This document shows, piece after piece, positions 1 to 64,000 of a stretch of 64,000 nucleotides of DNA. A program made the translations under genes and the position numbers. Numbering within the stretch: position 1 is the stretch's first letter; each line of letters starts with the position of its first letter. Origin of the DNA: Deltaproteobacteria bacterium (GTDB lineage: Bacteria > SAR324 > NAC60-12); contig JAYOTF010000002.1 of the NCBI GenBank assembly GCA_038150265.1, forward strand, positions 17,303-81,302. Reading direction: 5' to 3'. Below the pieces are notes generated by a model that was not told the DNA's origin, did no database searches, and saw only the letters and a list, made by a program, of their open reading frames with translations.

Positions 1-97
1 GGCGCGTCAAGTGGGGATTCCGGCGGTCCGGAAAATCAATTTAGCACTCACTTTATCAGAGTGCTAACAAGAACGCAACGGGGGGAGGGGAGGAGGC

Positions 98-1507
98 TCA
101 GGGTGCCTGGAGGAGTTGGGAGACCTGTTCCATATGCGTGGAGCGGGAGCCCTTGATGAGCACGACGTCTCCGGGCTGGATGGACTGACGGAGCTGGGTG
201 GCGAGTTGCTGATGATCAGCGGCAATGCTGAAGGCTTCTGGTGCTCCGGAGCCTTCGCGCCAGCCCTCTTCATAGAATTCGGCACGCTCGTCAGCGAGGG
301 TCCAGAAGGCCGACACCCCCCACGAGGCGGCAGCCTGAGCGACCTGACGGTGGAGCATGGGGGCCCACTCGCCGAGTTCGGCCATGGGGCCTGCGGCGAG
401 GAGGAGCCGCTGGTGGGGGAACATCTGCCGGAGGCTGGAGATCATGCTCCGGAAGGAGTCGGGGTTGGCATTGTAGGAGTCGTCAATGAGCATCCATCCG
501 TCTTGCTGGAGCTGCTGGAACCGGCCCGTGATGTTGAGCTGCAGGGCCTCGACGGCGTGTTGCAGGTCCGGAAGCGCCACTCCTTTGGCAGCCAGAAGGG
601 TCAGGCTGGCCACGAGGTTCCGGAGGTGCAAGGGGTTGTGGAGGGGGGCCTGAAACGCGACCCCCTGCCACTGAAACTGCACGCCGTCCGGAGTCCATTC
701 GATGGCGGTCAAGGTCGAGTCCGGACCTTGCGGCTCGAGTGAATAGGGCAGCAGGGTGACTCCCGCGGTTTGCGCGGCCTGCTGGATCAGGCCCCGGTGC
801 AGGAGGTCGTGAGGAATGACCACCGGCGACTCGGGCTTCATGCCACTGAAGAGTCCGGACTTCTCACGGGCCACGCCTTCCGTGCTGCCGAGAAACTCCA
901 GGTGCGACTCTCCGATGTTGGTGAGGATGCCGCCGTCGGGTTGGGCCATCTGCGAGAGGGCTTCGATTTCTCCATGCTGATTGGTTCCCATTTCCAGCAC
1001 CCACCAATCGGCCTCCAGGGGGCCCGAGAGGATGGTCTTGGGAACACCAATGAGGTTGTTGTAGTTGACCTCGGTGGCATGCGACCGTGCGTCGAGGGAG
1101 CGGCAGAGGCTGGCAAGGATTTCCTTGGTAGAGGTCTTCCCGCTGCTGCCGGTGATGCCGAGGACGGTGCCCGTGAAGCGCTGGCGGAAGTCAGCTGCCC
1201 ACTCGCGCAGAGCCCGGTTCGGGTCGGGAACCAGCAGGCGCGGAAACGGACGCTCGGCCAGCTCGGCGGGCAGGCGCAGCGGGTCGGCGATCACTCCGGC
1301 GGCTCCGGCCTCCAGGGCCGCCGCCATGTGGTCGTGTCCGTCCATGTGTTCCCCCTTGAGGCAGAGGAACCAGTCGCCGGGTTGGAGGGTCCGGGTATCG
1401 GTGCTGTAGCGGGTGATGCGCAGGTCGTCAGAAGCGTGCTCGGAGGTGGCACCATGAATGATTTGCTTCATCTCAGCGAGGCTATATACTTTCTGTATTG
1501 GATTCAC
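98..1507 (-). CDS. murF: UDP-N-acetylmuramoyl-tripeptide--D-Ala-D-Ala ligase
   Basis: Motifs STDTR, GITGSSGKTSTKE, NYNNLIGVP, LEMG, DDSYNANPDS, LIKGSR. Start uncertain (GTG 1507, ATG 1537 or ATG 1471). Confidence 0.95.
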   Translation of the reverse strand: MNPIQKVYSLAEMKQIIHGATSEHASDDLRITRYSTDTRTLQPGDWFLCLKGEHMDGHDHMAAALEAGAAGVIADPLRLPAELAERPFPRLLVPDPNRALREWAADFRQRFTGTVLGITGSSGKTSTKEILASLCRSLDARSHATEVNYNNLIGVPKTILSGPLEADWWVLEMGTNQHGEIEALSQMAQPDGGILTNIGESHLEFLGSTEGVAREKSGLFSGMKPESPVVIPHDLLHRGLIQQAAQTAGVTLLPYSLEPQGPDSTLTAIEWTPDGVQFQWQGVAFQAPLHNPLHLRNLVASLTLLAAKGVALPDLQHAVEALQLNITGRFQQLQQDGWMLIDDSYNANPDSFRSMISSLRQMFPHQRLLLAAGPMAELGEWAPMLHRQVAQAAASWGVSAFWTLADERAEFYEEGWREGSGAPEAFSIAADHQQLATQLRQSIQPGDVVLIKGSRSTHMEQVSQLLQAP

Positions 1508-1535
1508 TTTCACTACTAACGCATCAGGGTTTATC

Positions 1536-2612
1536 ATGTCTTCGCTTCAGCAACAGTTTGAAGAAGCCTTCGGTCGCATTCAACTCGACGATGGAACGTC
1601 CTTGGGGAGTGCAAACATCGTGTACGGCTGTGTGGTCAACAACGACTTTGCCAAGGTCACACTGGTTCTCCCAGAGGGTTCGCCCTTGCGTCAATCGCTT
1701 CCGGCACGCGTCGAGGCGGAAATCACGCAGATTCCAGCCATCCAGCGGGTTGCCGTAGAGGTGCTGGCGGAACCGCCACAGGAAGAAGGAGCGGCGCCTC
1801 AAGCGGCTCCGCAGCGTCCGACTCAGCAGCCTCGGCGAACGGCCTACCTGCAAAACTACGACTGTGTGCTCGCAGTTGCCAGCGGAAAGGGGGGCGTGGG
1901 CAAATCCACCGTTTCCGTGAACCTCGCCCTGGCCCTTCAGCAAAAGGGCTTCCGGGTCAGTTTGTTTGATGCCGACATCTACGGTCCCAGCATGCCCATC
2001 ATGACCGGCATGCGGGGCATCAAGCCTCCGGTTCATGGCAACAAGCTGTACCCGATTGAAGCCCATGGCCTGACGATGATGTCCATTGGCAACCTGGTGG
2101 AGGAGGACTCTTCGGTGGTGTGGCGTGGACCCATGGTGCACTCCGCCATCGACCAACTGCTGCGGGACACCGAATGGCCCGGAGGAGAGTTCATGGTGAT
2201 TGACATGCCGCCCGGAACCGGCGATGCTCACCTCTCGTTGTCGCAGCTTTGCGAGCTGACCGGAGCCGTGGTCGTCTCGACTCCGCAGGATGTGGCGCTG
2301 CTGGATGCGGCCAAGGCGGTCAACATGTTCACGAAGGTGGACATCCCGATCCTGGGCATTGTGGAGAACATGAGCTTCTTTGCCTGCCCGAAGTGCGGTG
2401 AGGAGACCCCGATCTTCAACCGGCACGGGGCCGAACAGGCCAGCAAGGAATACGAGGTCCCGTTCCTGGGCGCCATCCCGATTGAGCTGGACGTTCGGGC
2501 CGGAGGAGATGCCGGGACGCCGCTGATGATGCAGAAGCGCGACACCCCGGCAACCCGCGCCTTCTCGCAGATTGCCGATAACCTGATCGCGTCTCTCGAA
2601 GACCTGGCCTGA
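1536..2612 (+). CDS. mrp: Mrp/ApbC/NBP35 Fe-S cluster carrier ATPase
   Basis: ASGKGGVGKSTV, DADIYGPS, WRGPM, DMPPGTGD, VENMS..CPKC. ATG at 1536 preferred over 1458. Confidence 0.93.
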   Translation: MSSLQQQFEEAFGRIQLDDGTSLGSANIVYGCVVNNDFAKVTLVLPEGSPLRQSLPARVEAEITQIPAIQRVAVEVLAEPPQEEGAAPQAAPQRPTQQPRRTAYLQNYDCVLAVASGKGGVGKSTVSVNLALALQQKGFRVSLFDADIYGPSMPIMTGMRGIKPPVHGNKLYPIEAHGLTMMSIGNLVEEDSSVVWRGPMVHSAIDQLLRDTEWPGGEFMVIDMPPGTGDAHLSLSQLCELTGAVVVSTPQDVALLDAAKAVNMFTKVDIPILGIVENMSFFACPKCGEETPIFNRHGAEQASKEYEVPFLGAIPIELDVRAGGDAGTPLMMQKRDTPATRAFSQIADNLIASLEDLA

Positions 2613-2633
2613 TCCTCAGAACACACGGAGCCC

Positions 2634-2990: not shown

Positions 2991-3020
2991 CGGCTGATTC
3001 CTCCTCATTCAAGGTCCCCT

Positions 3021-6449: not shown

Positions 6450-9400
6450 ATGTCGCTCTCAATCAAGCAAAAGCTGATGGCCGCATTTGCGGCGGTGCTG
6501 GTCCTGTCGACTGTTTCGATACTCATCGGAGTGTTCCAGCTGGACCGGCTGGATCGAACCCTTCAGCACATCACTCAAGACTCCTTTCCTGCTCTGACCC
6601 GCGCTCAGGAAATGCTCTCGCACACCTACGTCATGGAGGTGGAGACCCGGAACCTCGTGTCTGCGCAAGACGTTGCGCAGGCGCGCCAGGCCGTGACCGA
6701 ATTCAAGCGAGCGCATCAGGAGTTGGTGAAGGACCTGCACGGGTTGTACAACGGTCCTGCGGCCAATGAACAGAGCCTGAACCTGATTGCGCTGGACACG
6801 GGGCTGACGAACTACCTGGTGCAATTTGAGGATTTCAAGCGCCAGGCCCTGGCGTACCAGGAACTCAAGGGCGCGGAAGGCTCCCCGTTTGAGCAGGTGC
6901 AACGGCACGACCAGTTGGTGCGCGAGTTGATGCAGGAGCACAGCCCGGCCATTGATGAGCTTCAGCAGCACCTCACTCGCTTCATGGAGGGAACACGCCA
7001 GGCCTTGGAGGAGGATCAGCACCAGAGCGCCGACTGGTTCCTCAGTGTCCAAAACTCCATGTACGCCCTGCTGGGAGGAGCCATGATCATCGGCTTTGGC
7101 ATTGCCTTGCTGGTGTCTCGTGCAGTGACGCGTTCGTTGCAACTGGCGCAGTACCAGGCTTCTCAGGTGGTTGCCGGGAACCTCCAGGCGGTGGTGGAGT
7201 ATGCTGCCGACGATGAAGTGGGGGTCCTCATTCGGGACCTCAATCACATGACGGAAGTCCTCCAGCGCCTGCATGCGGAAAATGAGCAGCGGGCGTGGAT
7301 TGACCAGAACCTGGCGCGCCTGCATGAAACCGCTCGTGGCGAGAAGGGGCTGGCGGAGCTGAGTTCGCTGCTCCTGACCACTCTGGGGGAATCGCTCGAC
7401 GCGCCTCTGGGGACGCTGTACCTGCGGCGAGATGTGGACGAATCGGGCTACCCGTGGATTCAACCGGAACTGCAGCTGCTGGCAACCCGCGCCTTGAGTA
7501 AGGAGCAGGTGCCTGCGAGCTTTCGCTGGGGAGAGGGGCTCGTGGGACAGTCCGCAAAGGAAGGAAACTGGTTGCAGCTCCAGGAGGCGTCGCCGGGTTA
7601 CTTCACGGTGGCCTCCGGACTGGGGGCCATGCCGGCACCGTACCTGCTGGTGCTGCCCTTCTGGTTTGGGCAAGAGGTGCGTGGGGTGATTGAGCTGGCC
7701 TCGGTTCAGCCCTGGAGTGAGCTCAAGCTGGAGCTGCTGGAGCGGGCCCTGAAGGTGGTGGGCATTGCGGTTCAGGCAGCCCTCAACCGCGAGGAGCTGA
7801 TTGAGAGCCTCAAGGAGGCGCAGGCCTTCACGGAGGAACTGCAGACGCAGCAGGAAGAACTGCAGTCGACAAACGAAGAGCTGGCTGCTCAAAGTCGCGC
7901 GCTGGAGGTGTCTCAGGAAGAACTCTCGGAGCGGAACTTCCAGCTGGAGCAGACGCAGAGCGCCCTCAACACCCGCGCCCAGCAACTGCAGCAGGCCTCT
8001 CAGTACAAGTCGGAGTTTCTGGCAAACATGAGCCATGAGCTCCGGACCCCGCTCAACTCCATCCTTCTGCTCTCCCGCTCCCTGGTGCAAGGGGGAGGCG
8101 AGGGGGACGCCCGGGAGCATGCGCAGGTGATTCAAGACGCGGGGCAGGACCTGTTGCTGATGATCAACGACCTCCTCGACCTCTCCCGAATTGAGGCGGG
8201 GAAGATGCCGATTTCCCTCAGTCGCATCGACCTCAAGGAGTTTGTGCAGAGCTTCCAGCCGCTCTTTCAGCCACAGGCTGAGGCCCGTGGCGTTCGGTTC
8301 CAGATTGTTGCCGATGGGCCGTTGCCCGAGTTGGTGGAGAGCGACCGCACCCGCCTTCAGCAGGTGCTCCGGAACTTCCTCTCCAATGCCTTCAAGTTTA
8401 CGAAATCGGGCGAGGTGACGCTGCGTGTGGAGCCGGTTTCGGAGTCCATCATCAGCCACCTCGCGACCTATGATTCGCTGCAGACGCACCTCCGGGAGCG
8501 TCCGGGTGAGTATGTGGCCTTCAGTGTTTCAGATACGGGGCTGGGGATTCCCTACAACAAGTTTCAGCTCGTGTTTGAAGCCTTCCGGCAGGCCGATGGC
8601 TCCATCAGCCGAGAGTACGGAGGCACCGGACTTGGCTTGGCGATTTCTGCCCAGATTGCGCACCTGCTGGAAGGCGCCCTGGCTCTGCAGTCGTCGACGG
8701 ATCCGGAAACCCATGGATCGACCTTTAGCCTGGTGGTGCCGCTGCAACCGAGTGAGGCCCTGCTGGCCGTGGCCGATGAGACCGACCCGCATCCAGCGGT
8801 TCCGGAGGAGCGACCTGCCGAGGAGAAACCGGCCCTGCCACTGATGGATGACCGGCAGGAAGAGCAGGCCGGCGTCCGGACGCTGCTGGTGGTGGAAGAT
8901 GACCCGAATGAGGCGCAGCAGGCCCTGAACCTGGGGCGCGAGCTGGGGTTCCGGGTGCTGCATGCGTCCACAGGCATTGAGGGCTTGCGCCTGGCCGAGC
9001 AGCACCTGCCAACGATGGTGGTGCTCTCTACCGAGGCGTCGGTGCTCAACGGGTGGAGCATGTTGCGGCAACTCCGGAAGCACGATGCGACCAGCCACAT
9101 TCCGGTGGTGCTCCTTTCTCGCGAAGACGAGGAGGCGCTGGGACGGCGCCTGGGGGCCGTGGACTTTCTGCGCAAACCGGTTCCCTACGAGACGCTCCGG
9201 AAGGTGCTGGTTCAGGTGGAGGAGCGGCAGCAGCAGCCCGTCAAGCGCCTGCTGGTGGTTGGAGCCGATGAGGAGGAGCACCGCGAGCTTCATGATCTGC
9301 TGGAGTGCGGAAAGTCGCTGGAGTGCGAGGCGGTGATGCGTGGAGCGGCTGCGATTGAAGCCCTCCGGAAGCAGCACTTTGACGCGTGCATCCTCGACCT

Positions 9401-10070
9401 CTCGCTTCCGGACCTGAGTGGCTTTGAGGTGCTGAAACAGGTCCGCGAGGATCCGTCCATTGAGCGGGTGCCGATCATTGTCTACACGAACAAGTGCCTC
9501 ACGTTGGAAGAGGACCGCCGCCTCCGGGAAGAGGCGCAGTCGATCATTCTGAAGACTGCCGACTCTCCAGCCCGGTTACTGGAGGAAACCACCCTCTTCC
9601 TGCACCGCAGCCGGTCGGAGCTGAGCCCGCGGCGCCAGGGGATGCTGCAGCAACTTCAGCAGGCGGATGCCTTCTTTGATGGCAAGAAGGTGCTGCTTGC
9701 CGATGATGACATCCGGAACACCTACGCCCTCGCCAGCTTGCTCAAGAAGAAGGGCTTTCAGGTGATCACTGCGGCTGATGGTGCCGAGGCCCTGAAGCGG
9801 GCGGAGGAACAGGCGTCGGAGCTGTCACTGATCCTGATGGATGTGATGATGCCGGGAATGGATGGGCTGGAGGTGATCCGGCGCCTGAGGAAGCAGTCCC
9901 CGTTTGGGGAGCTGCCAATCCTGGCCCTGACGGCCAAGTCGATGAAGGAAGACCGAGAGGAGTGCCTGGCGGCAGGAGCCTCGGATTACCTGACGAAGCC
10001 GATTGATCAGGACCAACTGCTGTCGCTGATGCGCCTCTGGTTGAGCTTCCGGAGCCCACATGGATGTTGA
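6450..10070 (+). CDS. membrane hybrid sensor histidine kinase (periplasmic helical bundle, HAMP, GAF, HisKA, HATPase, 3 REC)
   Basis: Two TM helices, DEVG HAMP, GEGLVGQ GAF, FLANMSHELRTPLN, NAFKFT, DTGLG, GGTGLGL, three receiver domains. Confidence 0.93.
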   Translation: MSLSIKQKLMAAFAAVLVLSTVSILIGVFQLDRLDRTLQHITQDSFPALTRAQEMLSHTYVMEVETRNLVSAQDVAQARQAVTEFKRAHQELVKDLHGLYNGPAANEQSLNLIALDTGLTNYLVQFEDFKRQALAYQELKGAEGSPFEQVQRHDQLVRELMQEHSPAIDELQQHLTRFMEGTRQALEEDQHQSADWFLSVQNSMYALLGGAMIIGFGIALLVSRAVTRSLQLAQYQASQVVAGNLQAVVEYAADDEVGVLIRDLNHMTEVLQRLHAENEQRAWIDQNLARLHETARGEKGLAELSSLLLTTLGESLDAPLGTLYLRRDVDESGYPWIQPELQLLATRALSKEQVPASFRWGEGLVGQSAKEGNWLQLQEASPGYFTVASGLGAMPAPYLLVLPFWFGQEVRGVIELASVQPWSELKLELLERALKVVGIAVQAALNREELIESLKEAQAFTEELQTQQEELQSTNEELAAQSRALEVSQEELSERNFQLEQTQSALNTRAQQLQQASQYKSEFLANMSHELRTPLNSILLLSRSLVQGGGEGDAREHAQVIQDAGQDLLLMINDLLDLSRIEAGKMPISLSRIDLKEFVQSFQPLFQPQAEARGVRFQIVADGPLPELVESDRTRLQQVLRNFLSNAFKFTKSGEVTLRVEPVSESIISHLATYDSLQTHLRERPGEYVAFSVSDTGLGIPYNKFQLVFEAFRQADGSISREYGGTGLGLAISAQIAHLLEGALALQSSTDPETHGSTFSLVVPLQPSEALLAVADETDPHPAVPEERPAEEKPALPLMDDRQEEQAGVRTLLVVEDDPNEAQQALNLGRELGFRVLHASTGIEGLRLAEQHLPTMVVLSTEASVLNGWSMLRQLRKHDATSHIPVVLLSREDEEALGRRLGAVDFLRKPVPYETLRKVLVQVEERQQQPVKRLLVVGADEEEHRELHDLLECGKSLECEAVMRGAAAIEALRKQHFDACILDLSLPDLSGFEVLKQVREDPSIERVPIIVYTNKCLTLEEDRRLREEAQSIILKTADSPARLLEETTLFLHRSRSELSPRRQGMLQQLQQADAFFDGKKVLLADDDIRNTYALASLLKKKGFQVITAADGAEALKRAEEQASELSLILMDVMMPGMDGLEVIRRLRKQSPFGELPILALTAKSMKEDREECLAAGASDYLTKPIDQDQLLSLMRLWLSFRSPHGC

Positions 10071-10881
10071 GTTTCCCACTGCCGAGGCCCTGGGGCGTTT
10101 GACCGCTCACCTCTTTGAGGTGTGGGGCGATGACTTCCGGCATTACAACTCGGCGAGCCTGGCCCGCCGTGTTGCCCTGACGCTGGTGCAGCATCAGCTC
10201 ACCAGCCTGGACGAGTTGCTGGCTCGTCTTGAGCACAGCCGTGTCCTCCGGGAGGCCCTGCGGAACAACCTCTCCATCAATGTCACGGCGCTGTTTCGCG
10301 ATCCGGTGGTGTTTCGCTACCTGCGTGAACACGTCCTGCCGTGGCTGGCAACCCATTCGTCCATCCGCATCTGGTCTGCCGGAGTGGCAACCGGAGCCGA
10401 GGCGTGGTCGCTTTCCATCCTCCTGCATGAGGCCGGTTTGGCGCAGCGGAGCACGATCTATGCGACCGACTTCAATCCGCATCTGGTGGAGCAGGCCGAG
10501 CGGGGAGAGTTCCCCCTCAAGCGCTTGGCGGAGTATGGACGCAACTACGAAGAAGCCGGAGGCTCCGGACGCTTCTCGCAGTACCTCTCTCTGCACCACG
10601 CCAACGCTCGGTTTTGTGACCAGCTGAGGCAACCGATTGTTTTTGCCGCCCATAACCTTGCAACGGATGGAGCCTTCAACGACTTCCACCTGATCTTGTG
10701 CCGAAACGTTTTGATTTACTTCGACCCTTTTCTCACCGAGCGTGTCCTGCATTTGTTTTCGGACAGCCTGATGGAGCGAGGCTTTCTCACCCTGGGGCTC
10801 AAGGAATCTCTGGGGAGTGGTCTGGGACATCAGAGTTTTGAGGAGCATGCGGCCGCGCTGAAAGTCTATCGAAAGCGATGA
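10060..10881 (+). CDS. cheR: CheR-type protein-glutamate methyltransferase
   Basis: INVTALFRDP, IRIWSAG.ATG.E, ILCRNVLIYF. Confidence 0.9.
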   Translation: MDVEFPTAEALGRLTAHLFEVWGDDFRHYNSASLARRVALTLVQHQLTSLDELLARLEHSRVLREALRNNLSINVTALFRDPVVFRYLREHVLPWLATHSSIRIWSAGVATGAEAWSLSILLHEAGLAQRSTIYATDFNPHLVEQAERGEFPLKRLAEYGRNYEEAGGSGRFSQYLSLHHANARFCDQLRQPIVFAAHNLATDGAFNDFHLILCRNVLIYFDPFLTERVLHLFSDSLMERGFLTLGLKESLGSGLGHQSFEEHAAALKVYRKR

Positions 10882-12050
10882 ATACCACTTATCACTCCCA
10901 GGAGCCGGTCTTGGTCGTGGATGACCAGGAAAAGAACCGGTTCGCCTTTCGTCAAATCCTCAAACTGGAGGGCATCCCCAGCGTGGAGCTGGAATCGGGA
11001 ACCGAAGCGCTGCGGTTTTTGCTGCACCAATCGGTGTCTCTGATTTTGCTGGATGTGCAGATGCCCGGCATGAATGGCTTTGAGACGGCCCAGCTCATTC
11101 GAGAGAATCCGGATTACCAGGAGGTGCCGATTCTGTTCATCACGGCGACGTACCGCTCCGACAAGTTTGCTGACTACGGGTTTGCGGTGGGGGCCTACGA
11201 CTACCTGACCAAACCCGTGGACAACCGCCTGCTCGTGAGCAAGGTGCGGCTGTTCCGGGCCCTGTACTTTGAAAAACAGGAGCTGCGCCGGGCGCACCAG
11301 CAGCTGAAGTTGCAGCACGAGCAGCTGAAATCGGTGAAGACCCAGGCCTTCCAGACGGCCAAACTGGTTGCCCTGGGCAAGCTGGCCACGGGCGTGGCAC
11401 ATGAGATCAACAACCCCCTGACGTTTGTGAACAGCTTGCTGGATGAGTGGGCGGAGGACCTCCAGAATCCGGAAGCGGTCGACCTGCACCAGCTGCAGCA
11501 GGACCTGGAACAGGGGCGTCAGCAGACCCAGCGGATCGCCAAGATCGTTCGGCACCTGATGGTCTTTGGACGTGGCGAAGAAGGCACTCAGGGGCCCTCC
11601 AGCCTAAGAGCGGTGCTGGAAAACAGCCGGCTTCTGATTGGTCAGCAGCTGCAGCAACAGCACGTCGACTTTGAAGTGGATCTGCCGGACACGCTTCCGC
11701 TCCTGCAAGGGAGTCAGCAGGACCTGGAACAGCTGCTGCTGAACCTGCTTCACAATGCTCTGGAGGCCTTTGAGCCGGAAGCTCCTTCCAAGCAACTGCA
11801 CCTGAAGGCTCGTGTGAAGGGAGAAAAGGTGGTGCTACAGATCCAGGACAATGGACCCGGAATTGAGGAAGAAGCGCTTGGAAAGATCTTTGACCCCTTC
11901 TTTACCACGAAAGAAATTGGACGCGGGGCCGGACTGGGGCTAGCGGTGAGTCATGGGCTGGCACGTGCCATGGGGGGAAGCATTACCTGCGAATCTTCTG
12001 CAGTGGCCGGGACTCAGTTTGATGTGACACTGCCGCTGGCACTGGGGTGA
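10878..12050 (+). CDS. cytoplasmic receiver-histidine kinase (REC-HisKA-HATPase)
   Basis: VLVVDD, LLDVQMP, GVAHEINNPL, DNGPG, FDPFFTTK, GAGLGL. Confidence 0.92.
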   Translation: MNTTYHSQEPVLVVDDQEKNRFAFRQILKLEGIPSVELESGTEALRFLLHQSVSLILLDVQMPGMNGFETAQLIRENPDYQEVPILFITATYRSDKFADYGFAVGAYDYLTKPVDNRLLVSKVRLFRALYFEKQELRRAHQQLKLQHEQLKSVKTQAFQTAKLVALGKLATGVAHEINNPLTFVNSLLDEWAEDLQNPEAVDLHQLQQDLEQGRQQTQRIAKIVRHLMVFGRGEEGTQGPSSLRAVLENSRLLIGQQLQQQHVDFEVDLPDTLPLLQGSQQDLEQLLLNLLHNALEAFEPEAPSKQLHLKARVKGEKVVLQIQDNGPGIEEEALGKIFDPFFTTKEIGRGAGLGLAVSHGLARAMGGSITCESSAVAGTQFDVTLPLALG

Positions 12051-12077
12051 CGGTTGCCGGGCTGAGGAGGTTTCCCG

Positions 12078-12833
12078 TTAGCGGTAATCGTCAAGCAGGA
12101 ACGGGTTCTTCTTCTTTTTCCGGCGTCGGCGAATGGGGAACTCTTGAGCCTTGAGTTTCAGCAGTTCCACCTGCAAGCGAATTTCACTGGCGTACTCCGA
12201 ATCTGGAAACTGTTCCAGAAGGTACTCCGCTGTTTGAATCACGGGGCCCAGCTTGGGCCGGTGGGGTAGGTTGTCAATCTTCAGGTAGCGTTCCAGGGTA
12301 CGAGCCCGGGCCGTGTCTTTGTTGATGGTGACGGTCCAGGCCCCGCTCCGCTCTCCCAGCGCTGCAATCCCGGTCCCGGTTTCCTGACTCCAGCAACGAA
12401 CCGCTGCCTGCATCAGGGCCACCACGTAGGTGTGCCAGTAATTTTCCTCAACCAGCGGCAGGATGGGCTCGCGCTGGATCTGAGTCTGGACCTTGCAGAT
12501 GTTTTCGAAGAGGGTGTCGTAAATGAAGGGCTTGACGATGATTCCGGTCACCCCCAGCTCAACCGCTTCTGCCGACTGACTGAGGTCGCCGGTTCCGGTC
12601 ACCAGGATGAACGGAATCTCTTTTTCGTTGGCTCGAAGTTCCTCCACCACTTCCAACCCTGAGCCGTCTGGTAACTGAAGATCCAGAACGAGGCAGTCAA
12701 TCCGGCGTTTTTGGAGGATGCCCCGGGCATCGTCCAGATTTTCTGCTCCCATGGTGGTGTGTCCCCACTCGACCAGAAGCCGCTGCATGGTGATGTTCAG
12801 CTGCAAATCGTCTTCAATAACCAGAATCTTCAT
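12078..12833 (-). CDS. response regulator: REC plus putative ChiS-family DNA-binding domain
   Basis: MKILVIEDD, LDLQLPD, IVKP. C-terminal domain is homologous to 55367..55960. Basic tail RRRRKKKK. Confidence 0.8.
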   Translation of the reverse strand: MKILVIEDDLQLNITMQRLLVEWGHTTMGAENLDDARGILQKRRIDCLVLDLQLPDGSGLEVVEELRANEKEIPFILVTGTGDLSQSAEAVELGVTGIIVKPFIYDTLFENICKVQTQIQREPILPLVEENYWHTYVVALMQAAVRCWSQETGTGIAALGERSGAWTVTINKDTARARTLERYLKIDNLPHRPKLGPVIQTAEYLLEQFPDSEYASEIRLQVELLKLKAQEFPIRRRRKKKKNPFLLDDYR

Positions 12834-13187
12834 AATCAGACTCGACTCAACAGTAGGTTGGCAGTCCATTCAGGATAGGAAAAAATGACGGGCTGAACAA
12901 GGTCGAATGCCGGACATTTTTTCTATATTTTACAAATATTTAGGGGCTTGAATTTCTTTGGGAAATTGTCATTTTAATCGGATTTTTGTTTTGAATGTCC
13001 GGGTGCAGGGACAAAACTGGACCACGGAGTCCGGTAATTTGGCAGATCGTGCTTTCTAGAAAAAGCAACTTTGGTATCGATGTGCTGAAGAAGTGACTGC
13101 CTAGAAGAAAGGTGACAGGTCACAGGAAGCCCCTGTGGCGACTTCGCCGGGGAAACGGAGCTGGAGTTGCTGGGGTGAGGAGGCCTC

Positions 13188-23996: not shown

Positions 23997-26885
23997 TTGT
24001 TTGTGAGTTCCATGCTGTCGACTGGAAGCCGCCTCTTCCTGCTTGCGTTCTTGCTCTGGTTCCTGGTTCCTGCAGGCTTGCAGGCCCAGACAAACGAGGT
24101 GCGCAAGGTTGAGCTGATCCGTCGCGGCAAGCAGATGAGCGTGCAGATCCTGACCGCTCAGCCTGCAGACTTTACCATCACCGAGAACCTCAAGTCCCTG
24201 ACGTTGGTGGTGAAGTTCCGGAACACGCGTCCGAACTTCCCCGATGGCAGCAACATCCGCCTCTTCAACGATGAGCAGGTCGAGGGGGTGCAGTTTCTGG
24301 AGATTGGCTCGGAAACCTGGGCCCAGTTCAAGCTCCGGACCGATGAACTGACCTACGAGCAGCGCTCAACCGACAACCCCAATCTGCTGGAGATCGCCTT
24401 TCGGCCTCCGGTGGAGATGGAGCCCCTCCCGGAAATTTCCGAAGACGCCCAGTACACCCTCCAGCGCATCCGTCATGACAACACAACCACCGACCGGACG
24501 CGCCTGATCTTCCAGTTTGACGAACTGCCTCGGCTGATGGCCCAGCCGGAACGCAACGGCACAGTGGTCAACCTACGCTTTCCGGACACGTTGCCAGTGG
24601 CAGGGCTGGACGCCTTTGCCTTTGGTGATGACCGTGTGAGCTTTGAGGGGCTGCAGGTGGACATCAACCAGATCTTTGTCCGCATGGAACTGCTGGGGGC
24701 CAATGGTCGTGTGGAAACGCAGCGCCTGCAGAGCCCACCTCGGTGGCAGGTCGACGTCTTTGGTGAGGTGCAGGGGCAATCCCAAGACGCGGTTGCCGAC
24801 CTGCTGGAAGGGAATGACAACCTGACCGATGAGGAGCGGTTTCAGCAGCGGGTGGACCGCATTGAGCGCAAGAACCGAGAAACGCGCCTCCGGAATTCCT
24901 ACCAGGTTGCGGAGCGGGGCTTCCGTCGCAACAACTACCAGGAAGCCATCCAGGGCTTCGAGGACGTCTACAAGCAGGCTCGGGTCAATGCCGCCGATTT
25001 TGAAGACGACATTCCCTCCATTGCGGTGCAGGCGCTCTTCCGGAAAGCCGACACGCTCTACACGATGCTGGAGCGCCGGCGAGGACGGAACTACCACACG
25101 GCCATTGACTCCTACAAGCTGGCGATGCGCATCGCCGAGGAGACCAACACGCGTGATGACCTGATGGCGCATGCCCTCTTCCGGGTCGCCCGCAGTTACC
25201 AGAAGATGGGCTTCAACGAAGAAGCGACGCTCTACTTCGACATGCTCCGCGACCGCTACCCTACGGCGATGGAGACCATTGAGTCGAACTTCTGGAAAGC
25301 CGTCAGCCAGGCGGACCGTCAGAACTGGGAAGAGGCCATCACGAACTTCAACAACTACCTGCAGGCGTCTCCGAATCCGAAGTACCTGGCTGCCGCCACC
25401 TACAAGCTGGCGCAGGCGAACTATCAGCTGGAGCGCTTCATCACGGCCCGTGAGTACTTTGACCAGGCCCGCGAGCTGGATCCGGACTACCCGCTGGGGC
25501 ACCCCATGCTGCTCTTCCACATGGGCGAGACCTACTACGAAAATGCGGACTACGTCACGGCCCGCGAGACCTTCAAGACGCTGCTGCGGCGTTATCCCAA
25601 GGCGGACTTTACCAAGTTTGTGGCCCTGCGGCTCGGAGACTTCCTCCGGGATGAAGGCAAGGAAGATGATGCCATTGCGGCTTACCGGAATGCCATTGGA
25701 AGTTACACCCGAGAGATTGCAATCCTCGGCAAGCTCCGCATTGCCAACCTGCAGTCCATGCGTCCTTACGGAGGTGAGCACCTGGAGGCGATCAAGGTCT
25801 ATGACGAAATCATGGAGCTGTATCCGGATGCGCCACAGGTGGAAGAGGCGATGCTCCGGAAGGGGCTGACCCTGACGCTTTATGGGGACTACGAGGCCGC
25901 AATTGCTGCGCTGGAAGCCTTCATGCAGAAGTACCCGCAGAGCCTCTATGTGCAGCGTGGGGTCATTCAGGAGAACATTGACGAGAACCTCAAGGGCCTG
26001 ATTGACCGCTACTATCAGCAGCAGGATGACCTGGCGCTGGTGGCGTCTTACCGCGACTACCAAGCCAAGTACCTCCTCAACTTCCGTTTCGTCTCCACCC
26101 TCTTTCAGGTGGCCAATGCGCACAAGAACCTGGGGCTGCACGATGACGCCCTGGACCTCCTGAAGTTTCTGGAAAGCCGAGCCCGTGGCACCATGCTGGA
26201 GCTGATTCGCCTGCAGATGGCCCAGACGCTTCTGGACAAGGGCAGTTTGCCGCAAGCTCGAGATCAGTACGCCCGCTTCCTCCAGCAGTATCCGGACAGC
26301 TCGTATGATGCTGCTGCACGGATGGATCTGGCCGAGGTGTACCGGCAGGAGCGGGAGTTTGACAAGGCGGAGTTGGTGCTGAACCAGGCCATTGAGAAGT
26401 ATGATCAGGATGAGGACCAGCTCAAGGCCGAGGTCACCCCTGAGCTGTACTACCGCCTGGGGCAGCTTTATGAGGAGATGGGACGTTACGCAGAAGCCGG
26501 CAACGCCTACCGCAACGCCATCCGCTCTTACAGCCATCCGGTCAATGCGCCCGATACTCCGGATTACGTGGTGAAGAGCCACTTCCTGGCAGCGGACATG
26601 CTCGCCAAGGTGGGAGAAGACGAGGCGGCTCTGGCGCAGTATGAGCTGGCCATGGCCACCTATGCCGACCAAACGGATCCGGATACCAAGGACCGGCTCA
26701 AGTGGGCGCTTTATCAATCCGGGACCCTGATGGCCCGGCTTGGGCAAGAACAGCAGGCGCTTGATGTCTTCAAGCAGCTGATTGATGATCCGGAAGGACA
26801 GGGGCAGCTCTGGCAGCGGTTGGCGAATGAGCAGTACCAGGCGCTCTCGCGGCAGCTTTCCTTCCAGAACTACCTGCAGCAGTAA
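23997..26885 (+). CDS. exported protein with N-terminal AMIN-like beta domains and long TPR solenoid
   Basis: Signal peptide ending AGLQAQ; TRLIFQF and PPRWQVDV AMIN-like segments; many TPR units (..YP.S.., A.YKLA). Confidence 0.8.
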   Translation: MFVSSMLSTGSRLFLLAFLLWFLVPAGLQAQTNEVRKVELIRRGKQMSVQILTAQPADFTITENLKSLTLVVKFRNTRPNFPDGSNIRLFNDEQVEGVQFLEIGSETWAQFKLRTDELTYEQRSTDNPNLLEIAFRPPVEMEPLPEISEDAQYTLQRIRHDNTTTDRTRLIFQFDELPRLMAQPERNGTVVNLRFPDTLPVAGLDAFAFGDDRVSFEGLQVDINQIFVRMELLGANGRVETQRLQSPPRWQVDVFGEVQGQSQDAVADLLEGNDNLTDEERFQQRVDRIERKNRETRLRNSYQVAERGFRRNNYQEAIQGFEDVYKQARVNAADFEDDIPSIAVQALFRKADTLYTMLERRRGRNYHTAIDSYKLAMRIAEETNTRDDLMAHALFRVARSYQKMGFNEEATLYFDMLRDRYPTAMETIESNFWKAVSQADRQNWEEAITNFNNYLQASPNPKYLAAATYKLAQANYQLERFITAREYFDQARELDPDYPLGHPMLLFHMGETYYENADYVTARETFKTLLRRYPKADFTKFVALRLGDFLRDEGKEDDAIAAYRNAIGSYTREIAILGKLRIANLQSMRPYGGEHLEAIKVYDEIMELYPDAPQVEEAMLRKGLTLTLYGDYEAAIAALEAFMQKYPQSLYVQRGVIQENIDENLKGLIDRYYQQQDDLALVASYRDYQAKYLLNFRFVSTLFQVANAHKNLGLHDDALDLLKFLESRARGTMLELIRLQMAQTLLDKGSLPQARDQYARFLQQYPDSSYDAAARMDLAEVYRQEREFDKAELVLNQAIEKYDQDEDQLKAEVTPELYYRLGQLYEEMGRYAEAGNAYRNAIRSYSHPVNAPDTPDYVVKSHFLAADMLAKVGEDEAALAQYELAMATYADQTDPDTKDRLKWALYQSGTLMARLGQEQQALDVFKQLIDDPEGQGQLWQRLANEQYQALSRQLSFQNYLQQ

Positions 26886-32433: not shown

Positions 32434-32459
32434 GTTCAGTTCCTTATAGGTCAGACGAT

Positions 32460-34349
32460 TCAGGCGTGAGCCAGCTGGGCCTCTTCCGAGAGGCTTTTGA
32501 GTTCTTCAAGGTCCGCTTTTCCTGGCCCGGTGAAGGCTTCCTGGGCAGGCTTGTGCGCTTCCTGCTCAAACACTTCCCGGAAGGACTTGGCTGCCAGGTA
32601 CTCGGTCTGAATCACAAAACGTGCTCCTGAGCCATAGAGTTCAAGGGTCTCCTGGTGAGAGGAGGTGGCGGCAATGAAGGGCACTTCCGGAGAGCGTTCC
32701 TTCAGCCAGCGGGCAATGCCCATCTCAGCTTCCTGGCCACCGTCCATGCACGAGATCACCACCTTGGCCTGATCAAAGGCCATGCTTTCCCAAACATCCG
32801 GGTCCTGCATGTCGGAGTAGTGTGCGTGGATGTTGCTGTGTCCATGCTGGTTTTCGAAGTATTCGGTGATATCCGGATCCAGGTCGAGGAGCAGAACCTG
32901 TTGTCCCCGCTGGGCGTAGAAGTCGGCAATCTCGACGGCCAGGTCGTTGTACTCCATGATGACCACATGGTTTTCGAGGACCAGGTCGTGTTCCCCTTCG
33001 TGCTCGGTCTCTTCACGCGTCCGGCGTCCGTCCATGAACTTCAGTGGGCCAGAGAGGGCGTTGTAGATCTGATCCATGAACTGGTGTCCCAGAGACGACA
33101 GGAAGAAGGTGGTCAGGACGACAATCGTGATCACAATGAAGAGGTGCGGATCAAAGATCTTGTACTGGAGGCACAGGACCGAAAGCATGAGGGAGAACTC
33201 AGAGGACTGGTTGATGATCACCCCCATCAATAAGGAGGGGCGAGATTCCAGCTTGCTGAGGTAGCCCAGGGTCAGCATCAGCGGAATGGTGCCGATCACG
33301 ACCGGGACAATGGCGAGGATGATTCCGTCCATCAGTCCACCGAGCACCTGATCCACCTCCAGTCCGGAGATGTCAAAGCCCAGACCAAAGAAGAACAGCA
33401 TCACGCCGAAGGCCTTCAGCGGCTCCACCTTGTCTTCAATCTCATGCCGGTACGGCAGAGCGGCCAGAGTGGCGCCCGCGAAGAAGGCTCCGATTCCGGA
33501 GGAGAAGTGCACGACCTCACAGAGTCCGGCCACGCCCATTCCATACCCGAGGGTTCCGATGAAGAGGAGCTGCGGGGAGCGAGCAAAGAACTTGAAGAGC
33601 GGACTGAGGATGTGCTTGGTCACAAAGTAGAGGATGACGGCCAGGATGATCATCTTGCCGAAGATCAGGCCGACCTCCACTCCCAGGACCGGAGCTTCTT
33701 CGCCTGGAGCCACGGGCTTCAGCACTCCGAGGATGGCAAGGGCGACCACCGCGGTGATGTCCTGCAGCACCATCAGGCCCAGTGCAATCTGTCCATGCTC
33801 CTGTGCAATCTGTCCGGTTTGCTTGAGGTTCCCCACCACCAGGATGGTCGAGGAAAGGGTCAGGCAGATCCCGAAGTACAGCAGCGCCGCTGTGGCGTTT
33901 CCTTCCGGAAGCCCGGCGTTCCGCATGTATTCGGCATCAATGCCCATGTAAACGATACCAAATCCGACACAGACGATCAGCAAACCGATGATCTGCCCCA
34001 TGCCGTTGATCAGGAGCAGCTTCCAGCGCTTGATCAACCCCGGAATGTCCACTTCCATTCCGGCCATGAAGAGCAGGAGGGTGATGCCGACGTCCACGAA
34101 CGCGGTCATCACGTTCGTGTTGATGATCTCCTTGAAGCCAATGGCGCCTCCAATGATGCCAACAATGATGAAGGCAAAGAGGCTGGCTTGTTTGGCGTAG
34201 CTCAGGATGATTGCAATGATTGCAGCCGCCAGGAGCATGGCTCCCAGAGGCTCAATCAAATCCGTTCCGCCCCCGCCACCAGCCGCATAGGCTGGCAGGG
34301 CCAGTACGAGTGATCCCAGCAAGATGATGAGGCGTGCCATATGGTTCAT
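32460..34349 (-). CDS. CPA2/Kef-type cation:proton antiporter paralogue 1 with C-terminal RCK(TrkA-N)-like domain
   Basis: LLLFMAGME, LSSTILV, LVLQD-like (MVLQDI), GAFFAG, QSSEF; start 34349 or 34340. Confidence 0.9.
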   Translation of the reverse strand: MNHMARLIILLGSLVLALPAYAAGGGGGTDLIEPLGAMLLAAAIIAIILSYAKQASLFAFIIVGIIGGAIGFKEIINTNVMTAFVDVGITLLLFMAGMEVDIPGLIKRWKLLLINGMGQIIGLLIVCVGFGIVYMGIDAEYMRNAGLPEGNATAALLYFGICLTLSSTILVVGNLKQTGQIAQEHGQIALGLMVLQDITAVVALAILGVLKPVAPGEEAPVLGVEVGLIFGKMIILAVILYFVTKHILSPLFKFFARSPQLLFIGTLGYGMGVAGLCEVVHFSSGIGAFFAGATLAALPYRHEIEDKVEPLKAFGVMLFFFGLGFDISGLEVDQVLGGLMDGIILAIVPVVIGTIPLMLTLGYLSKLESRPSLLMGVIINQSSEFSLMLSVLCLQYKIFDPHLFIVITIVVLTTFFLSSLGHQFMDQIYNALSGPLKFMDGRRTREETEHEGEHDLVLENHVVIMEYNDLAVEIADFYAQRGQQVLLLDLDPDITEYFENQHGHSNIHAHYSDMQDPDVWESMAFDQAKVVISCMDGGQEAEMGIARWLKERSPEVPFIAATSSHQETLELYGSGARFVIQTEYLAAKSFREVFEQEAHKPAQEAFTGPGKADLEELKSLSEEAQLAHA

Positions 34350-52787: not shown

Positions 52788-53771
52788 TCACTCCTCTGCT
52801 CCGGAATGGTCCAGCGGCAACGCCATCGCCATTCCGGACACTCCTTCTTGCTGCCGAAGCAGCATCAATTCTCCCTTCAACTGATGAGCGACCCTCCGGA
52901 AGTGCTGGAGCAACGCATCCTCGGGTGCCGACTGCAGGAACTGATCAAGGGCGGGTGACGGACGGGGCACCTGAATCCGGAATCGCGAATGCACACCGGG
53001 GCGCAGGTTCAGGAAGGGCGCGTTGGTGTCAGTGGCGCGCAAGGCCCCCACTTCCAGGAGCAGCTCCTCTCCGGCCTGAGTGGTGGAAGCGCAGGTTTGC
53101 AGACCCCACAGCAGCAACTCAAGCAGCATGAGGGCATCGCAGCCAACCGACCGGGCCTCCACCTCTCGCTGAATCCGTAGCGGCGTCTCGGGGTAGCTGC
53201 CTTCCCAAAGCGTCTGGATCAAGGGCAGCACCTGGTCGAGCACGGACTCGTCGTTGGGAACTCCGGGGGTGAGGAGGGCCAGCTGCTCCTGAAAACGGAT
53301 CCGAAGGTCTGCCGAGACGGAGCTTTGCTCCCAGCGCAGCCAGGTCCGGGCCAGGACGTGTCCGTGGTGCCAGGAGAGCCCCCCTGCGCTTCCAGAGAAG
53401 AGGCTGCTCTGGTGCAGGGCCATTTCAATGGTGGCCAGCAGTTCGCGGCGCTTGAACGGCTTGACGATGTATCCGGAGGGATGCGTCAGCTTGGCGCGTT
53501 CCAGCATGGACTGGTTGGTGAACGAAGTCACATAGATCATCGGCAGACCATGCTGCTGCCGGAGCTGTTGGGCGGTTTCAATGCCGTCCATCTCGCCAGA
53601 GAGCATCACATCCACCAGCGCCAGATCCACGGACTGCTCCTGCAGCAACGCCAGGGCTTCCTCGCCAGACGAGGCGATGAAGGCGGAGTACCCGGCTTCT
53701 TCCAGGCAGTACACCATGTCGTCTGCGACAATGGCCTCATCTTCAATCACCAGCAGCCGTCCGTGGTTCAT
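52788..53771 (-). CDS. receiver-domain protein with degenerate kinase-like C-terminus
   Basis: LLVIEDE, LVDVML, GYIVKPF; the C-terminus follows an HATPase-like layout without N/G boxes. Confidence 0.75.
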   Translation of the reverse strand: MNHGRLLVIEDEAIVADDMVYCLEEAGYSAFIASSGEEALALLQEQSVDLALVDVMLSGEMDGIETAQQLRQQHGLPMIYVTSFTNQSMLERAKLTHPSGYIVKPFKRRELLATIEMALHQSSLFSGSAGGLSWHHGHVLARTWLRWEQSSVSADLRIRFQEQLALLTPGVPNDESVLDQVLPLIQTLWEGSYPETPLRIQREVEARSVGCDALMLLELLLWGLQTCASTTQAGEELLLEVGALRATDTNAPFLNLRPGVHSRFRIQVPRPSPALDQFLQSAPEDALLQHFRRVAHQLKGELMLLRQQEGVSGMAMALPLDHSGAEE

Positions 53772-61656: not shown

Positions 61657-61707
61657 TCGGGTCCGGTGAGGGGCTTCGGGTGAAGCGACGGGTCGGTTCC
61701 GGAAGAG

Positions 61708-62538: not shown

Positions 62539-62952
62539 GACCAGCCTTCGCATGAGGTTCATAGGGCGCGCGAGTTCCGGAAGCATTATGCCCGCGCGGG
62601 CTCCAAAGCGGAACCCACTCTGTGTGAGGCTCCGGACTCGGCTGTTGTGTTGAGGAGCCTGCGGAAGCGCTTCACCGAGGCGGAGTGCCGGCGATGCCCT
62701 TTGGAAAACAGCCCCCCAGCTTTTTGCTCAATCCCCCAGTGTTTCCCCGGGTCCCTCCCCGGATTCAAGAGTCGGTTCCGACCAAGTTGCTTATTTCATT
62801 AGTGAAAATATCGGTCCAGGTCTTGCCTTGTGAGGAGATCGGTTCCTTGAGGGGAGCGAGTGAGATGCATTCCGAGTTCCCCCAGGAATTTTTTTTTGAA
62901 GCCGCCAAAGGAGTCCGTCCCTAGGGAGTGTTTGATTGAAGGAGAAGATCAC

Positions 62953-63477
62953 ATGAGGCCGTTCACGCCAATCGTTTCATTGACAAGGACCCAACGCCTT
63001 CTGGGGCTTGGAGTACTGGTCGGGGGCTTGCTGCTGACCGGGTGTTCCGGTCTTGAGGGGGATGAATCCCATAGTCTCACCAGCAGTGCCGGAGGCAGCA
63101 GCCACAACTTTGGAGGGGACTGCTTCGAATGCCATGCTTCCGGGAGCGGAAGCGAGGCCTCGGAGTATGCCTTTACTGTTGCCGGAAGCGTGTATGCGAG
63201 CAGTGGAAGCTCAACGGCCCTGACTGGAGACAGTGGCGCCGTGGTGAAATTCTACACCCAACCCAGCCAGTCAGGCGATTTGGTACTCGAGCTTCCGGTG
63301 GATGGCTCTGGGAACTTCTACACGACTCAGTCGGTGTCCGGACTCAGCTCGGGTCTGTACCCGACCCTGGCTTATGCGGGACGGGTTCAATCCATGGTCT
63401 CCAAAGCGGCGCAAACTGGAAACTGTGCCAGCTGCCATGCGACCGGAAGCACCCAGCCTCCTCTTTATGCGCCGTAA
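62953..63477 (+). CDS. diheme c-type cytochrome lipoprotein
   Basis: RBS GAAGGAG, lipobox LTGC, CFECH and CASCH heme-binding motifs. Confidence 0.8.
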   Translation: MRPFTPIVSLTRTQRLLGLGVLVGGLLLTGCSGLEGDESHSLTSSAGGSSHNFGGDCFECHASGSGSEASEYAFTVAGSVYASSGSSTALTGDSGAVVKFYTQPSQSGDLVLELPVDGSGNFYTTQSVSGLSSGLYPTLAYAGRVQSMVSKAAQTGNCASCHATGSTQPPLYAP

Positions 63478-63839
63478 TTGGGCTTTCGCACCAACCTCTT
63501 TTTTGTGAGAATGCTGATGAATCTGCAACCGTCTCTTGCTCTGGTTTGGCTGTTCCTTGGGCTGTTGACGCTGCTTCTCGGAGCCTCCGGATGCAGCAGC
63601 GAGGATTTCCCACTCAACCCGTTGGACCCCAGCTCGGTAAGCTCCGATGGCGACAGCGGAGTCTCGTGTCGAGGAGATGACCGGGCCCGGACGGCGGCCA
63701 GCTCGGATTATGACGATTCTGGTTCCGAATCGGAATCGGCTGTGAGCTACACCTCTTCCTGCAGCCACAACGTTGGGCAGCAGTGCACGAGTTGTCATGT
63801 GGCCGGCAGCGGAAGCGAGGCCTCGGAGTATGCCTTTAC
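63145..63839 (+). repeat. 32-nt exact direct repeat shared by the two cytochrome paralogues
   Basis: AGCGGAAGCGAGGCCTCGGAGTATGCCTTTAC at 63145-63176 and 63808-63839. Confidence 0.9.
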
Positions 63840-64000
63840 CCTGGCCGGCAGCGTTTACACCAACAGCACTGGAGACGCGGCCTTGACCAACAGCACGGCG
63901 GTGATGAAGTTTTACACGGATAGCACCCACTCCGGCAGCCCGGTGCTGACGCTGCAGGTCGATCAATCCGGGAACTTCTACACCACTCAAGCCGTGCCCA
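63511..64000 (+). CDS. second c-type cytochrome lipoprotein paralogue (3' end outside the window; not in the ORF track)
   Basis: Hand translation MLMNLQ...LLGASGC...SHNVGQQCTSCHVAGSGSEASEYAFTLAGSVY...VDQSGNFYTTQ; open to the window end. Confidence 0.8.
   Translation, partial: MLMNLQPSLALVWLFLGLLTLLLGASGCSSEDFPLNPLDPSSVSSDGDSGVSCRGDDRARTAASSDYDDSGSESESAVSYTSSCSHNVGQQCTSCHVAGSGSEASEYAFTLAGSVYTNSTGDAALTNSTAVMKFYTDSTHSGSPVLTLQVDQSGNFYTTQAVP

Follow-up and report, generated by a model that had tools for sequence, protein, structure and literature searches.

What keeps a single palindromic hexamer, TCCGGA, at about three copies per kilobase is the question raised by a 64,000-nucleotide stretch of DNA from a bacterium of the SAR324 lineage. 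This stretch (hereafter, the window) spans positions 17303 to 81302 of contig C2 in the genome designated G000, a metagenome-assembled genome (MAG) of 3.39 Mb in 87 contigs that is 97.8% complete. The window contains 191 copies of TCCGGA (2.98/kb), compared with 23.6 ± 4.6 (maximum, 36) in 100 dinucleotide-preserving shuffles, and no other hexamer exceeds 104. The initial annotation, made from the letters of the window alone, had described TCCGGA as a highly iterated palindrome resembling HIP1 of cyanobacteria, acting at the DNA level and independently of codon phase. Its counts were accurate: all eight positions named at the start of the window (27, 245, 448, 567, 619, 687, 720, and 854) are correct, the number of sites up to base 22000 is exactly 66, the roughly 9-fold excess agrees with the counts given here and below, and the word recurs to the end, with 21, 20, 30, 21, 27, 23, 29, and 20 sites in successive 8-kb segments. 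Besides, we found that the excess is genome-wide and cannot be attributed to the encoded proteins, and that neighboring sites are coupled to one another at the helical repeat of DNA.

The window is a sample of a genome in which TCCGGA is dispersed throughout. G000 carries 9,711 copies (2.86/kb), and no other hexamer reaches as high a count or as high a zero-order observed-to-expected ratio (O/E). We carried out the Markov-model check proposed in the initial annotation and obtained O/E values of 8.67 at zero order, 2.39 at third order, and 1.22 at fourth order; the last value is low because the pentamers TCCGG and CCGGA (O/E of 3.11) already hold much of the excess. The enrichment is not shared by the other palindromes of the form NCCGGN, since ACCGGT (745 sites; O/E, 0.66), GCCGGC (1,898; 0.68), and CCCGGG (1,872; 0.67) are all below expectation. 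The one-mismatch neighbors of TCCGGA have O/E values of 0.5 to 3.0, and a change of an outer base lowers the ratio from 8.7 to 1.4 to 2.3. This single-base specificity argues for base readout. The excess extends to intergenic DNA (122 kb in short stretches), in which TCCGGA is again the most frequent hexamer and has a zero-order O/E of 7.75 and a third-order O/E of 2.31.

A longer repeat element, such as a miniature inverted-repeat transposable element, was considered as the carrier of the hexamer and excluded. The flanks show only a weak palindromic preference (GCT|TCCGGA|AGC, at most 0.08 bit per position), the commonest 12-mer around the site (GCTTCCGGAAGC) is present in just 57 copies, and the pairs of sites lying at the preferred distances of 20 bp or more described below are, without exception, distinct sequences. 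TCCGGA is a dispersed hexamer and no repeat element.

Our own simple codon-model caller assigned 87% of the G000 genome to 2,692 genes, and for 36 of the 44 genes called in the window, Pfam supported the frame chosen. The density of TCCGGA was about 3/kb within genes and 1.5 to 1.7/kb around start codons, where the GC content drops as well. Counts per gene were Poisson-like (variance/mean of 1.08), and 3 of the 505 genes of at least 1.5 kb lacked the word, compared with 2.0 expected. The gaps between sites were exponentially distributed (32 gaps of at least 2 kb versus 32.0 expected), and thus no site-free islands of foreign DNA above the Poisson expectation were present in G000.

An excess of this kind might simply follow from the base composition of the genome, its codon usage, or the dipeptides that it encodes. 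The codons TCC, GGA, CCG, and CGG are each used fairly often in G000, the dipeptides SG, PE, and PD occur at O/E values of 1.41, 1.65, and 1.35, respectively, and the fourth-order Markov ratio is just 1.22. We therefore shuffled synonymous codons within genes (30 shuffles genome-wide and 200 for the window genes), a control that the initial annotation had also called for. The coding sequences of G000 contain 8,691 sites versus 2,077 ± 30 after shuffling (O/E, 4.18), and the excess was found in each codon phase: 2,048 sites read TCC GGA, 2,375 read nTC CGG Ann, and 4,268 read nnT CCG GAn, whereas 528, 731, and 818, respectively, were expected (O/E of 3.9, 3.3, and 5.2). The 44 genes of the window gave a similar result, with 168 sites versus 38.0 ± 5.5 (maximum, 57) and an O/E of 4.4. 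Synonymous choices strongly favor the word. A four-fold degenerate third position before CCG GAn is T in 74% of cases (n = 3,574) versus a baseline of 11.6%, GGA follows TCC in 69% versus 26%, CGG stands between nTC and Ann in 69% versus 38%, and GTC precedes CGG A in 90% versus 36%. Overall, 8,691 of the 19,148 places where the protein sequence permits TCCGGA (45%) carry it. Together with the intergenic counts, the shuffles rule out a codon or dipeptide artifact, and the enrichment of TCCGGA in a relative of 43% GC with different codon usage, as well as a codon-shuffle O/E of 0.23 in a related nonenriched genome, leaves this explanation with next to no credence. The DNA-level and phase-independent character claimed for the word in the initial annotation thus holds, and neither of the outcomes named there as refutations (a ratio near 1 after codon-preserving shuffling, or comparable enrichment of the other NCCGGN words) was obtained.

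We then compared relatives, using a collection that holds 88 genomes for the whole phylum; by RpoD, the closest named relatives share only about 47% identity. Word counts in relatives are whole-genome counts scaled to the composition-matched control word AGGCCT, and sequence-level analyses rest on samples of 50 to 750 kb per genome. Sampled zero-order O/E values were 6.97 in G002 (a member of the genus of the window), 7.65 in G013 (56% GC), and 8.6 in G018 (43% GC), and codon-preserving shuffles gave 3.41 for G013 and 3.22 for G018. The nonenriched genomes G020, G025, and G029 had O/E values of 0.31, 0.77, and 0.11, respectively, and it was G020 that gave the codon-shuffle value of 0.23 (100 kb). 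Hence, the same word is enriched 7- to 9-fold at 43%, 56%, and 61% GC, with codon-shuffle ratios of 3.2, 3.4, and 4.2. The pull at both synonymous and intergenic positions and the identity of the word across 18 GC points show a DNA-level cause that recognizes the hexamer. The excess is independent of codon usage and GC content, evenly spread, and restricted to certain lineages.

The ratio of TCCGGA to AGGCCT was 3.9 to 5.9 in the three genomes of the genus of the window. Within the same family, it was 14 to 30 in genus g12 (3 genomes), 1.6 to 32 in g11 (18 genomes), 3.0 to 8.4 in g4 (3 genomes), 4.5 to 4.7 in g6 (2 genomes), and 3.8 in g3. Genera g2 (9 genomes; ratio, 0.84 to 1.14), g5, g8, and g9 were not enriched, nor was the sister family f2 (19 genomes; 0.13 to 2.0). 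In another family, some genera were enriched (2.4 to 8.2), whereas others purge the word (15 to 267 sites versus 1,435 to 1,882 of AGGCCT). Genera g33 and g35 to g37 of family f7 belong to the enriched group, and g38 to g43 to the neutral or purging one. The trait is consistent within genera and patchy across this small phylum. The purging in other lineages resembles restriction-site avoidance, whose sign is opposite to that of the excess in G000. Strong depletion was seen in G081 and G083 to G087 (family f7), and in G067, G068, G029, G027, and G032, examples being 15, 25, and 31 TCCGGA sites versus 1,435 to 1,728 of AGGCCT. G020 (genus g2), which avoids TCCGGA, has more matches to PF00145 than any other relative searched, seven in all, of which one falls short of the family cut-off. 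No alternate palindrome as abundant as TCCGGA was found in samples (52 to 100 kb) of nonenriched relatives. TGGCCA showed O/E values of 3.8 and 3.1 at zero order, and 1.94 and 1.82 at third order, in G029 and G025 of the sister family, respectively.

The distances between TCCGGA sites provide the evidence on which our interpretation mainly depends. Pair distances in G000 peaked near 9.5, 20, 31, 41.5, 52, 62.5, 73, 84, and 94 bp. After removal of the codon (modulo 3) component, the normalized power at 10.5 bp was 30.7 for TCCGGA and at most 3.1 for 16 abundant control hexamers. Fitting a damped cosine placed the period at 10.505 ± 0.028 bp and the maxima at 9.6 + 10.5n, with a decay length close to 163 bp, and the phasing amplitude at 201 to 264 bp was still 0.11, compared with a noise level of 0.03. 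By the Rayleigh test, the power at 10.5 bp in G000 was 52, with an offset of 9.8 bp. In the window by itself, the 134 pairs gave a power of 1.2; its pairs are illustrative only, because they are too few to show phasing.

The phasing does not come from the encoded proteins. Places where TCCGGA was permitted but unused (n = 10,457) showed none, either among themselves (power of 2.0) or relative to real sites (3.0), whereas pairs of real sites in different codon phases were phased (power of 10.0). These two controls rule out a periodicity of protein helices or repeats. Furthermore, the realized share of permitted places rose from 0.29 to 0.36 out of phase with a neighboring site to 0.52 to 0.60 in phase with it. 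General dinucleotide periodicity is likewise ruled out: relative amplitudes of dinucleotides in G000 were at most 0.008, compared with 0.185 for TCCGGA, and the phasing of CCGG, TCCGG, and TCCG disappeared once the TCCGGA sites were masked. Thus, the sites are helically coupled to each other independently of the encoded protein.

The coupling recurred in other genera. Rayleigh tests gave a period of 10.55 bp, a power of 7.6, and an offset of 9.1 bp (9.7 at 10.5 bp) in G002 (347 kb); 10.5 bp, 32.1, and 10.4 bp in G018, which belongs to another genus (713 kb; 277 pairs, amplitude of 0.68); and 10.55 bp, 19.6, and 5.3 bp in G013, of a third genus (746 kb; amplitude of 0.43). The period is therefore equal in all phased genomes, and the register corresponds to about whole turns in two genera and is about half-integral in the third. 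As a comparator, GATC of Escherichia coli K-12 (400 kb; 1,708 sites, 978 pairs) showed no phasing, with a power of at most 1.8 and an amplitude of 0.06. Variants of TCCGGA altered at an outer position were weakly co-phased with true sites (power of 9.4). Short spacings were depleted, at 11 to 17 bp in G000 (3 to 12 pairs per bin versus about 28 expected) and at 11 to 24 bp in G013. Pairs 9 bp apart in G000 numbered 45 but comprised only 19 distinct sequences, one of which occurred six times. Hairpin avoidance or steric exclusion could underlie the 11- to 17-bp depletion and the 9-bp pairs.

Coupling over 20 to more than 250 bp at the helical repeat is consistent with an agent that physically reads the DNA while in contact with two or more sites, and it is not predicted by single-site processes such as mutation bias or very-short-patch repair. 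We propose that TCCGGA is a DNA-level word whose high density would be maintained by selection or by some process coupled to the site. Its reader would probably be a DNA-binding protein that is abundant, sequence specific, and most likely dimeric and that recognizes the word in unmodified or methylated form; copies of this protein bound along the helix may interact through cooperative contacts, filament formation, or wrapping. In that case, new sites would be favored at a whole number of 10.5-bp turns from existing ones (a half-integral number in one genus), and selection would act weakly, distributed among thousands of sites that are individually replaceable. We regard the chances as evenly balanced that TCCGGA is such a selected word, read by a putative abundant protein with interactions between its bound copies in register with the helix. 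We infer both the existence of the protein reader and its role in chromosome architecture.

Whether the DNA itself, rather than a protein, could account for the register has to be considered, because the period equals the helical repeat and remains coherent past 250 bp. A 10- to 11-bp helical periodicity of A-tracts and dinucleotides in prokaryotes is reported, with evidence that such periodicity of short motifs is selected (Atzinger & Lawrence 2020, PMC7537859; Mrazek-group papers). By analogy, a bendable or kinkable TCCGGA might tune curvature or supercoiling with no dedicated reader. The two signals are alike in having a genome-wide extent, a period equal to the helical repeat, and signs of selection. 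In our case, however, one hexamer carries the signal, with amplitudes of 0.19 to 0.68, and dinucleotide periodicity in G000 is weak; A/T content around the sites in G000 showed no helical-repeat periodicity either. The 13-fold gap between TCCGGA and ACCGGT (9,711 versus 745 sites) is hard to obtain from mechanics alone, and the same-face arrangement in two genera and the opposite-face arrangement in the third would require opposite mechanical goals. We consider this mechanical explanation distinctly unlikely.

Several observations weigh against the selected, protein-read word that we favor. The preferred phase differs by genus (offsets of about -0.7, -0.1, and +5.3 bp, the last being a half turn), which one conserved reader does not predict without extra assumptions. 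The excess of the hexamer itself over its pentamers is small, as the fourth-order ratio indicates, and the gene calls come from a crude in-house caller with the in-frame Pfam support given above. Moreover, the searches made did not identify a reader protein for TCCGGA. Histone-fold proteins were not found in the enriched genomes, homologues of MutH and SeqA were not found in G000, and the CCGG-family nucleases Bse634I and NgoMIV were not found in searches run without a positive control. Turnover of sites is also quick: 396 of the 880 sites of G000 are kept in G002, and the TCC-GGA codon pair ranks only 14th of 111 for excess conservation. Selection per site would be weak at best, given this fast turnover and rank.

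In the alignment of G000 with G002 (333 kb, 82% nucleotide identity, 62% at third positions), retention appears modestly above controls. In the reverse direction, 396 of 684 sites of G002 are kept in G000. Conservation by codon phase was 41 to 52%, compared with 33% for all hexamers. Where both genomes permit the word, the probability of a site in G002 was 0.51 to 0.67 given a site in G000 and 0.17 to 0.29 otherwise. Third positions within the motif were kept above baseline at T1 (64 to 71% versus 48%), C2 (82 to 86% versus 65.5%), G5 (77 to 84% versus 67%), and A6 (66 to 69% versus 43%), and those at the central CG were not consistently above it. These data suggest that the sites are maintained yet replaceable.

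In the histone-fold searches, G006 alone was above the cut-off. This 12-Mb bin has 13 matches to PF00808 (contigs C7 and C488; loci L162 and L165), arranged in tandem units about 6.6 kb apart, and these units may be eukaryotic contamination of the bin.

TCCGGA is a known target of restriction-modification systems, and the initial annotation had offered methylation-linked repair as one possible driver and a nucleoid-binding protein as the other. Under the former, a methylase would mark TCCGGA or CCGG, and biased mismatch repair would turn near-sites into the word. The strong pull of synonymous positions, the retention of T1 and A6 above baseline, and the weak co-phasing of outer-position variants would all suit such a process, and a model of this type is proposed for HIP1 (Elhai 2015, PMC4390886). 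The enzymes and the footprint that it calls for did not appear. Neither a 5-methylcytosine (m5C) methylase (PF00145) nor Vsr was found in G000, although control genomes were matched, and a gene might lie among unbinned sequence of the incomplete MAG. PF00145 was present in 14 of 41 relatives with no relation to enrichment, in none of three genomes of the most enriched genus, and only as fragments in the other top genera. Motif cytosines in the G000/G002 alignment showed no C-to-T excess (5 to 13% versus a 13.5% baseline), and the words expected from deamination were not depleted (TCTGGA, O/E of 2.57; TTCGGA, 1.34). The Dcm/Vsr system, acting on CCWGG, is a known route by which repair can enrich a methylated word, and G000 differs from it in each of these respects. 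Besides, a bias acting at single sites does not predict coupling over 20 to 250 bp. Methylation or repair drive is thus unsupported, since there is no m5C methylase or Vsr, no methylase among those found that tracks the trait, and no C-to-T footprint, and we judge biased repair quite unlikely. Of the two drivers first suggested, the methylation and repair branch found no support here, and the nucleoid-protein branch gains indirect support from the 10.5-bp phasing.

An alternative use of methylation is a mark like that of Dam at GATC, assembled from nonhomologous parts, in which an orphan methylase would modify TCCGGA, hemimethylated sites would serve tasks linked to replication, such as strand discrimination or sequestration, and selection would raise the density of a rare 6-mer to that typical of GATC. 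E. coli GATC is a palindrome at a few evenly spread sites per kilobase, as is TCCGGA, and the densities are of the same order (4.3/kb, from 1,708 sites in 400 kb, and 2.86/kb); the exponential gaps, Poisson-like gene counts, and rarity of long genes without a site in G000 provide the even coverage that such a mark would need. SeqA recognizes pairs of GATC sites that share a helical face. In contrast to E. coli, G000 lacks MutH, SeqA, and a clear Dam-family gene, the single PF02086 match being 47 residues long within an ambiguous methylase-like gene, and GATC shows no 10- to 11-bp phasing.

The search for an orphan methyltransferase of TCCGGA or CCGG, as the initial annotation had advised, came closest with two N6/N4-type methylase-like genes, neither of which tracks enrichment. 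PF02384 was not found in G000. The gene on contig C51 (L002/L148) has the motifs DPFMGGGT (motif I) and TSPPYPG (motif IV) in an orphan context and is conserved, being present in 35 of 41 relatives. These include all four genomes examined of a nonenriched genus and 15 of 16 of a nonenriched family, and we rejected it as the driver because its occurrence does not follow the enrichment. A Foldseek comparison of its structural model (mean predicted local distance difference test score, 82) matched nothing more specific than Rossmann methylases in general, some of which act on tRNA or rRNA. A profile search for genes of this type in five genomes of other families, which lacked a positive control, gave no match. 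We hold a Dam-like mark to be unlikely. The orthologues (L149 to L161) are conserved across the order, the residue before PPY varies in g12 (C, N, or R), and in the two most enriched genera, though not in the nonenriched g2, the proteins begin with a long additional stretch of charged R-P-R-R-E-D-R-P-type repeats at the N terminus. The other gene, a PF01555 methylase on contig C45 (L001, 35-3159), lies head to tail with a reverse transcriptase (RVT_1) and a 311-amino-acid (aa) open reading frame with no assigned family, a cluster that looks like a mobile or defense module. It was set aside as a driver, since a full-length orthologue (71% identity) occurs in one relative only.

DNA uptake sequences (DUS) and uptake signal sequences (USS) are nonpalindromic 9- to 12-mers recognized by the competence machinery, and their density is of the same order as that of TCCGGA. 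An uptake or recombination machinery that prefers word-bearing fragments could likewise leave a dispersed, lineage-restricted word in all reading phases, and a 2024 preprint ties HIP1 to transformation efficiency (10.1101/2024.09.10.611283). TCCGGA, however, is a 6-bp palindrome with a weak flank preference, which affords little specificity, and helical coupling between sites is not predicted by uptake. An origin of this kind appears very improbable.

The highly iterated palindromes of cyanobacteria have been recognized for some 30 years, and, to our knowledge, there is still no consensus on their function. TCCGGA resembles HIP1 (GCGATCGC) and its cyanobacterial alternates in being a short, GC-rich palindrome that is the most overrepresented word of its genome, found in genes in all phases and in intergenic DNA, lineage specific, and variable among relatives. 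It differs in length (6 bp versus 8 bp) and in phylum. HIP1 is reported to exceed expectation 15- to 300-fold and to show greater conservation of its sites between genomes than controls do (Xu, Lawrence & Durand 2018, PMC5861425), and its high frequency is reported to go with a methyltransferase that specifically recognizes either the whole word or its core (Elhai 2015, PMC4390886). In comparison, the excess of TCCGGA is 8.7-fold at zero order and 2.4-fold at third order, its conservation appears just modestly above controls, and no accompanying cognate methylase was found. A periodic distribution of HIP1 is reported on the scale of 10 to 90 kb (Elhai 2015; Xu, Lawrence & Durand 2018), whereas the period here is 10.5 bp; the contigs of G000 are too short and unordered for the kilobase scale. 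We found no report of TCCGGA hyperabundance or of a helically phased specific hexamer in the literature searched, which did not extend to supplements.

TCCGGA is thus a second, independent case of a highly iterated palindrome, with a simpler word and in a small uncultured phylum, where genomes of 43 to 61% GC are enriched in it 7- to 9-fold. The 10.5-bp phasing is a new handle on such words, because it cannot come from protein coding or single-site mutation bias, and it favors a physical readout of the DNA over a drive by repair alone. The protein-read word predicts a specific binder, cooperative binding at whole-turn spacings, and a half-turn shift in one genus. Whatever its basis, a DNA-level constraint sets synonymous choice at thousands of positions, as with the T before CCG GAn in 74% of cases versus a baseline of 12%, and it matters for codon-usage models, gene design, and the binning of these organisms.

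A bolder version, which we put forward tentatively and consider rather less than probable, is a lineage-specific chromatin-like system. In this version, a dimeric protein would occupy about 10,000 sites per chromosome and polymerize or bridge in helical register, with a geometry shifted by genus such that bound copies share one helical face in two of the genera but take opposite faces in the third. Selection for the register might reach synonymous codons, and perhaps dipeptide content, across the whole proteome, and the sister lineages that purge the word may face nucleases directed against TCCGGA.

Within the window, individual sites can be followed in their genes. The eight sites at its start (27 to 859) are associated with a Mur-ligase gene (called at 101-1537 on the minus strand) with Mur_ligase domains. 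A hybrid histidine-kinase gene at 6450-10067 on the plus strand, with HisKA, HATPase_c, and Response_reg domains, contains 12 sites distributed 1/8/3 over the three codon phases, and the three readings cited from it in the initial annotation are borne out: GCC TCC GGA (Ala-Ser-Gly) at 7614-7619 in phase 0, CTC CGG AAG (Leu-Arg-Lys) at 9073-9078 in phase 1, as also at 9196 and 9364, and GAT CCG GAA (Asp-Pro-Glu) at 8702-8707 in phase 2. Sites near whole helical turns can be illustrated by 52800, 52833, and 52895 (52800-52900), where the distances are 33 and 62 bp, and by the pair 25823/25855 (25823-25860), which is 32 bp apart. Comparable pairs are 5754/5774 (20 bp), 40910/40930 (20 bp), and 60218/60250 (32 bp).

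The kinase, a protein of 1,206 aa with three receiver matches, opens a signaling cluster at 6450-12869 that also encodes CheR, a receiver-kinase, and a further receiver protein. On the minus strand at 30574-34349, two neighboring paralogues (620 and 629 aa) each combine Na_H_Exchanger and TrkA_N domains.

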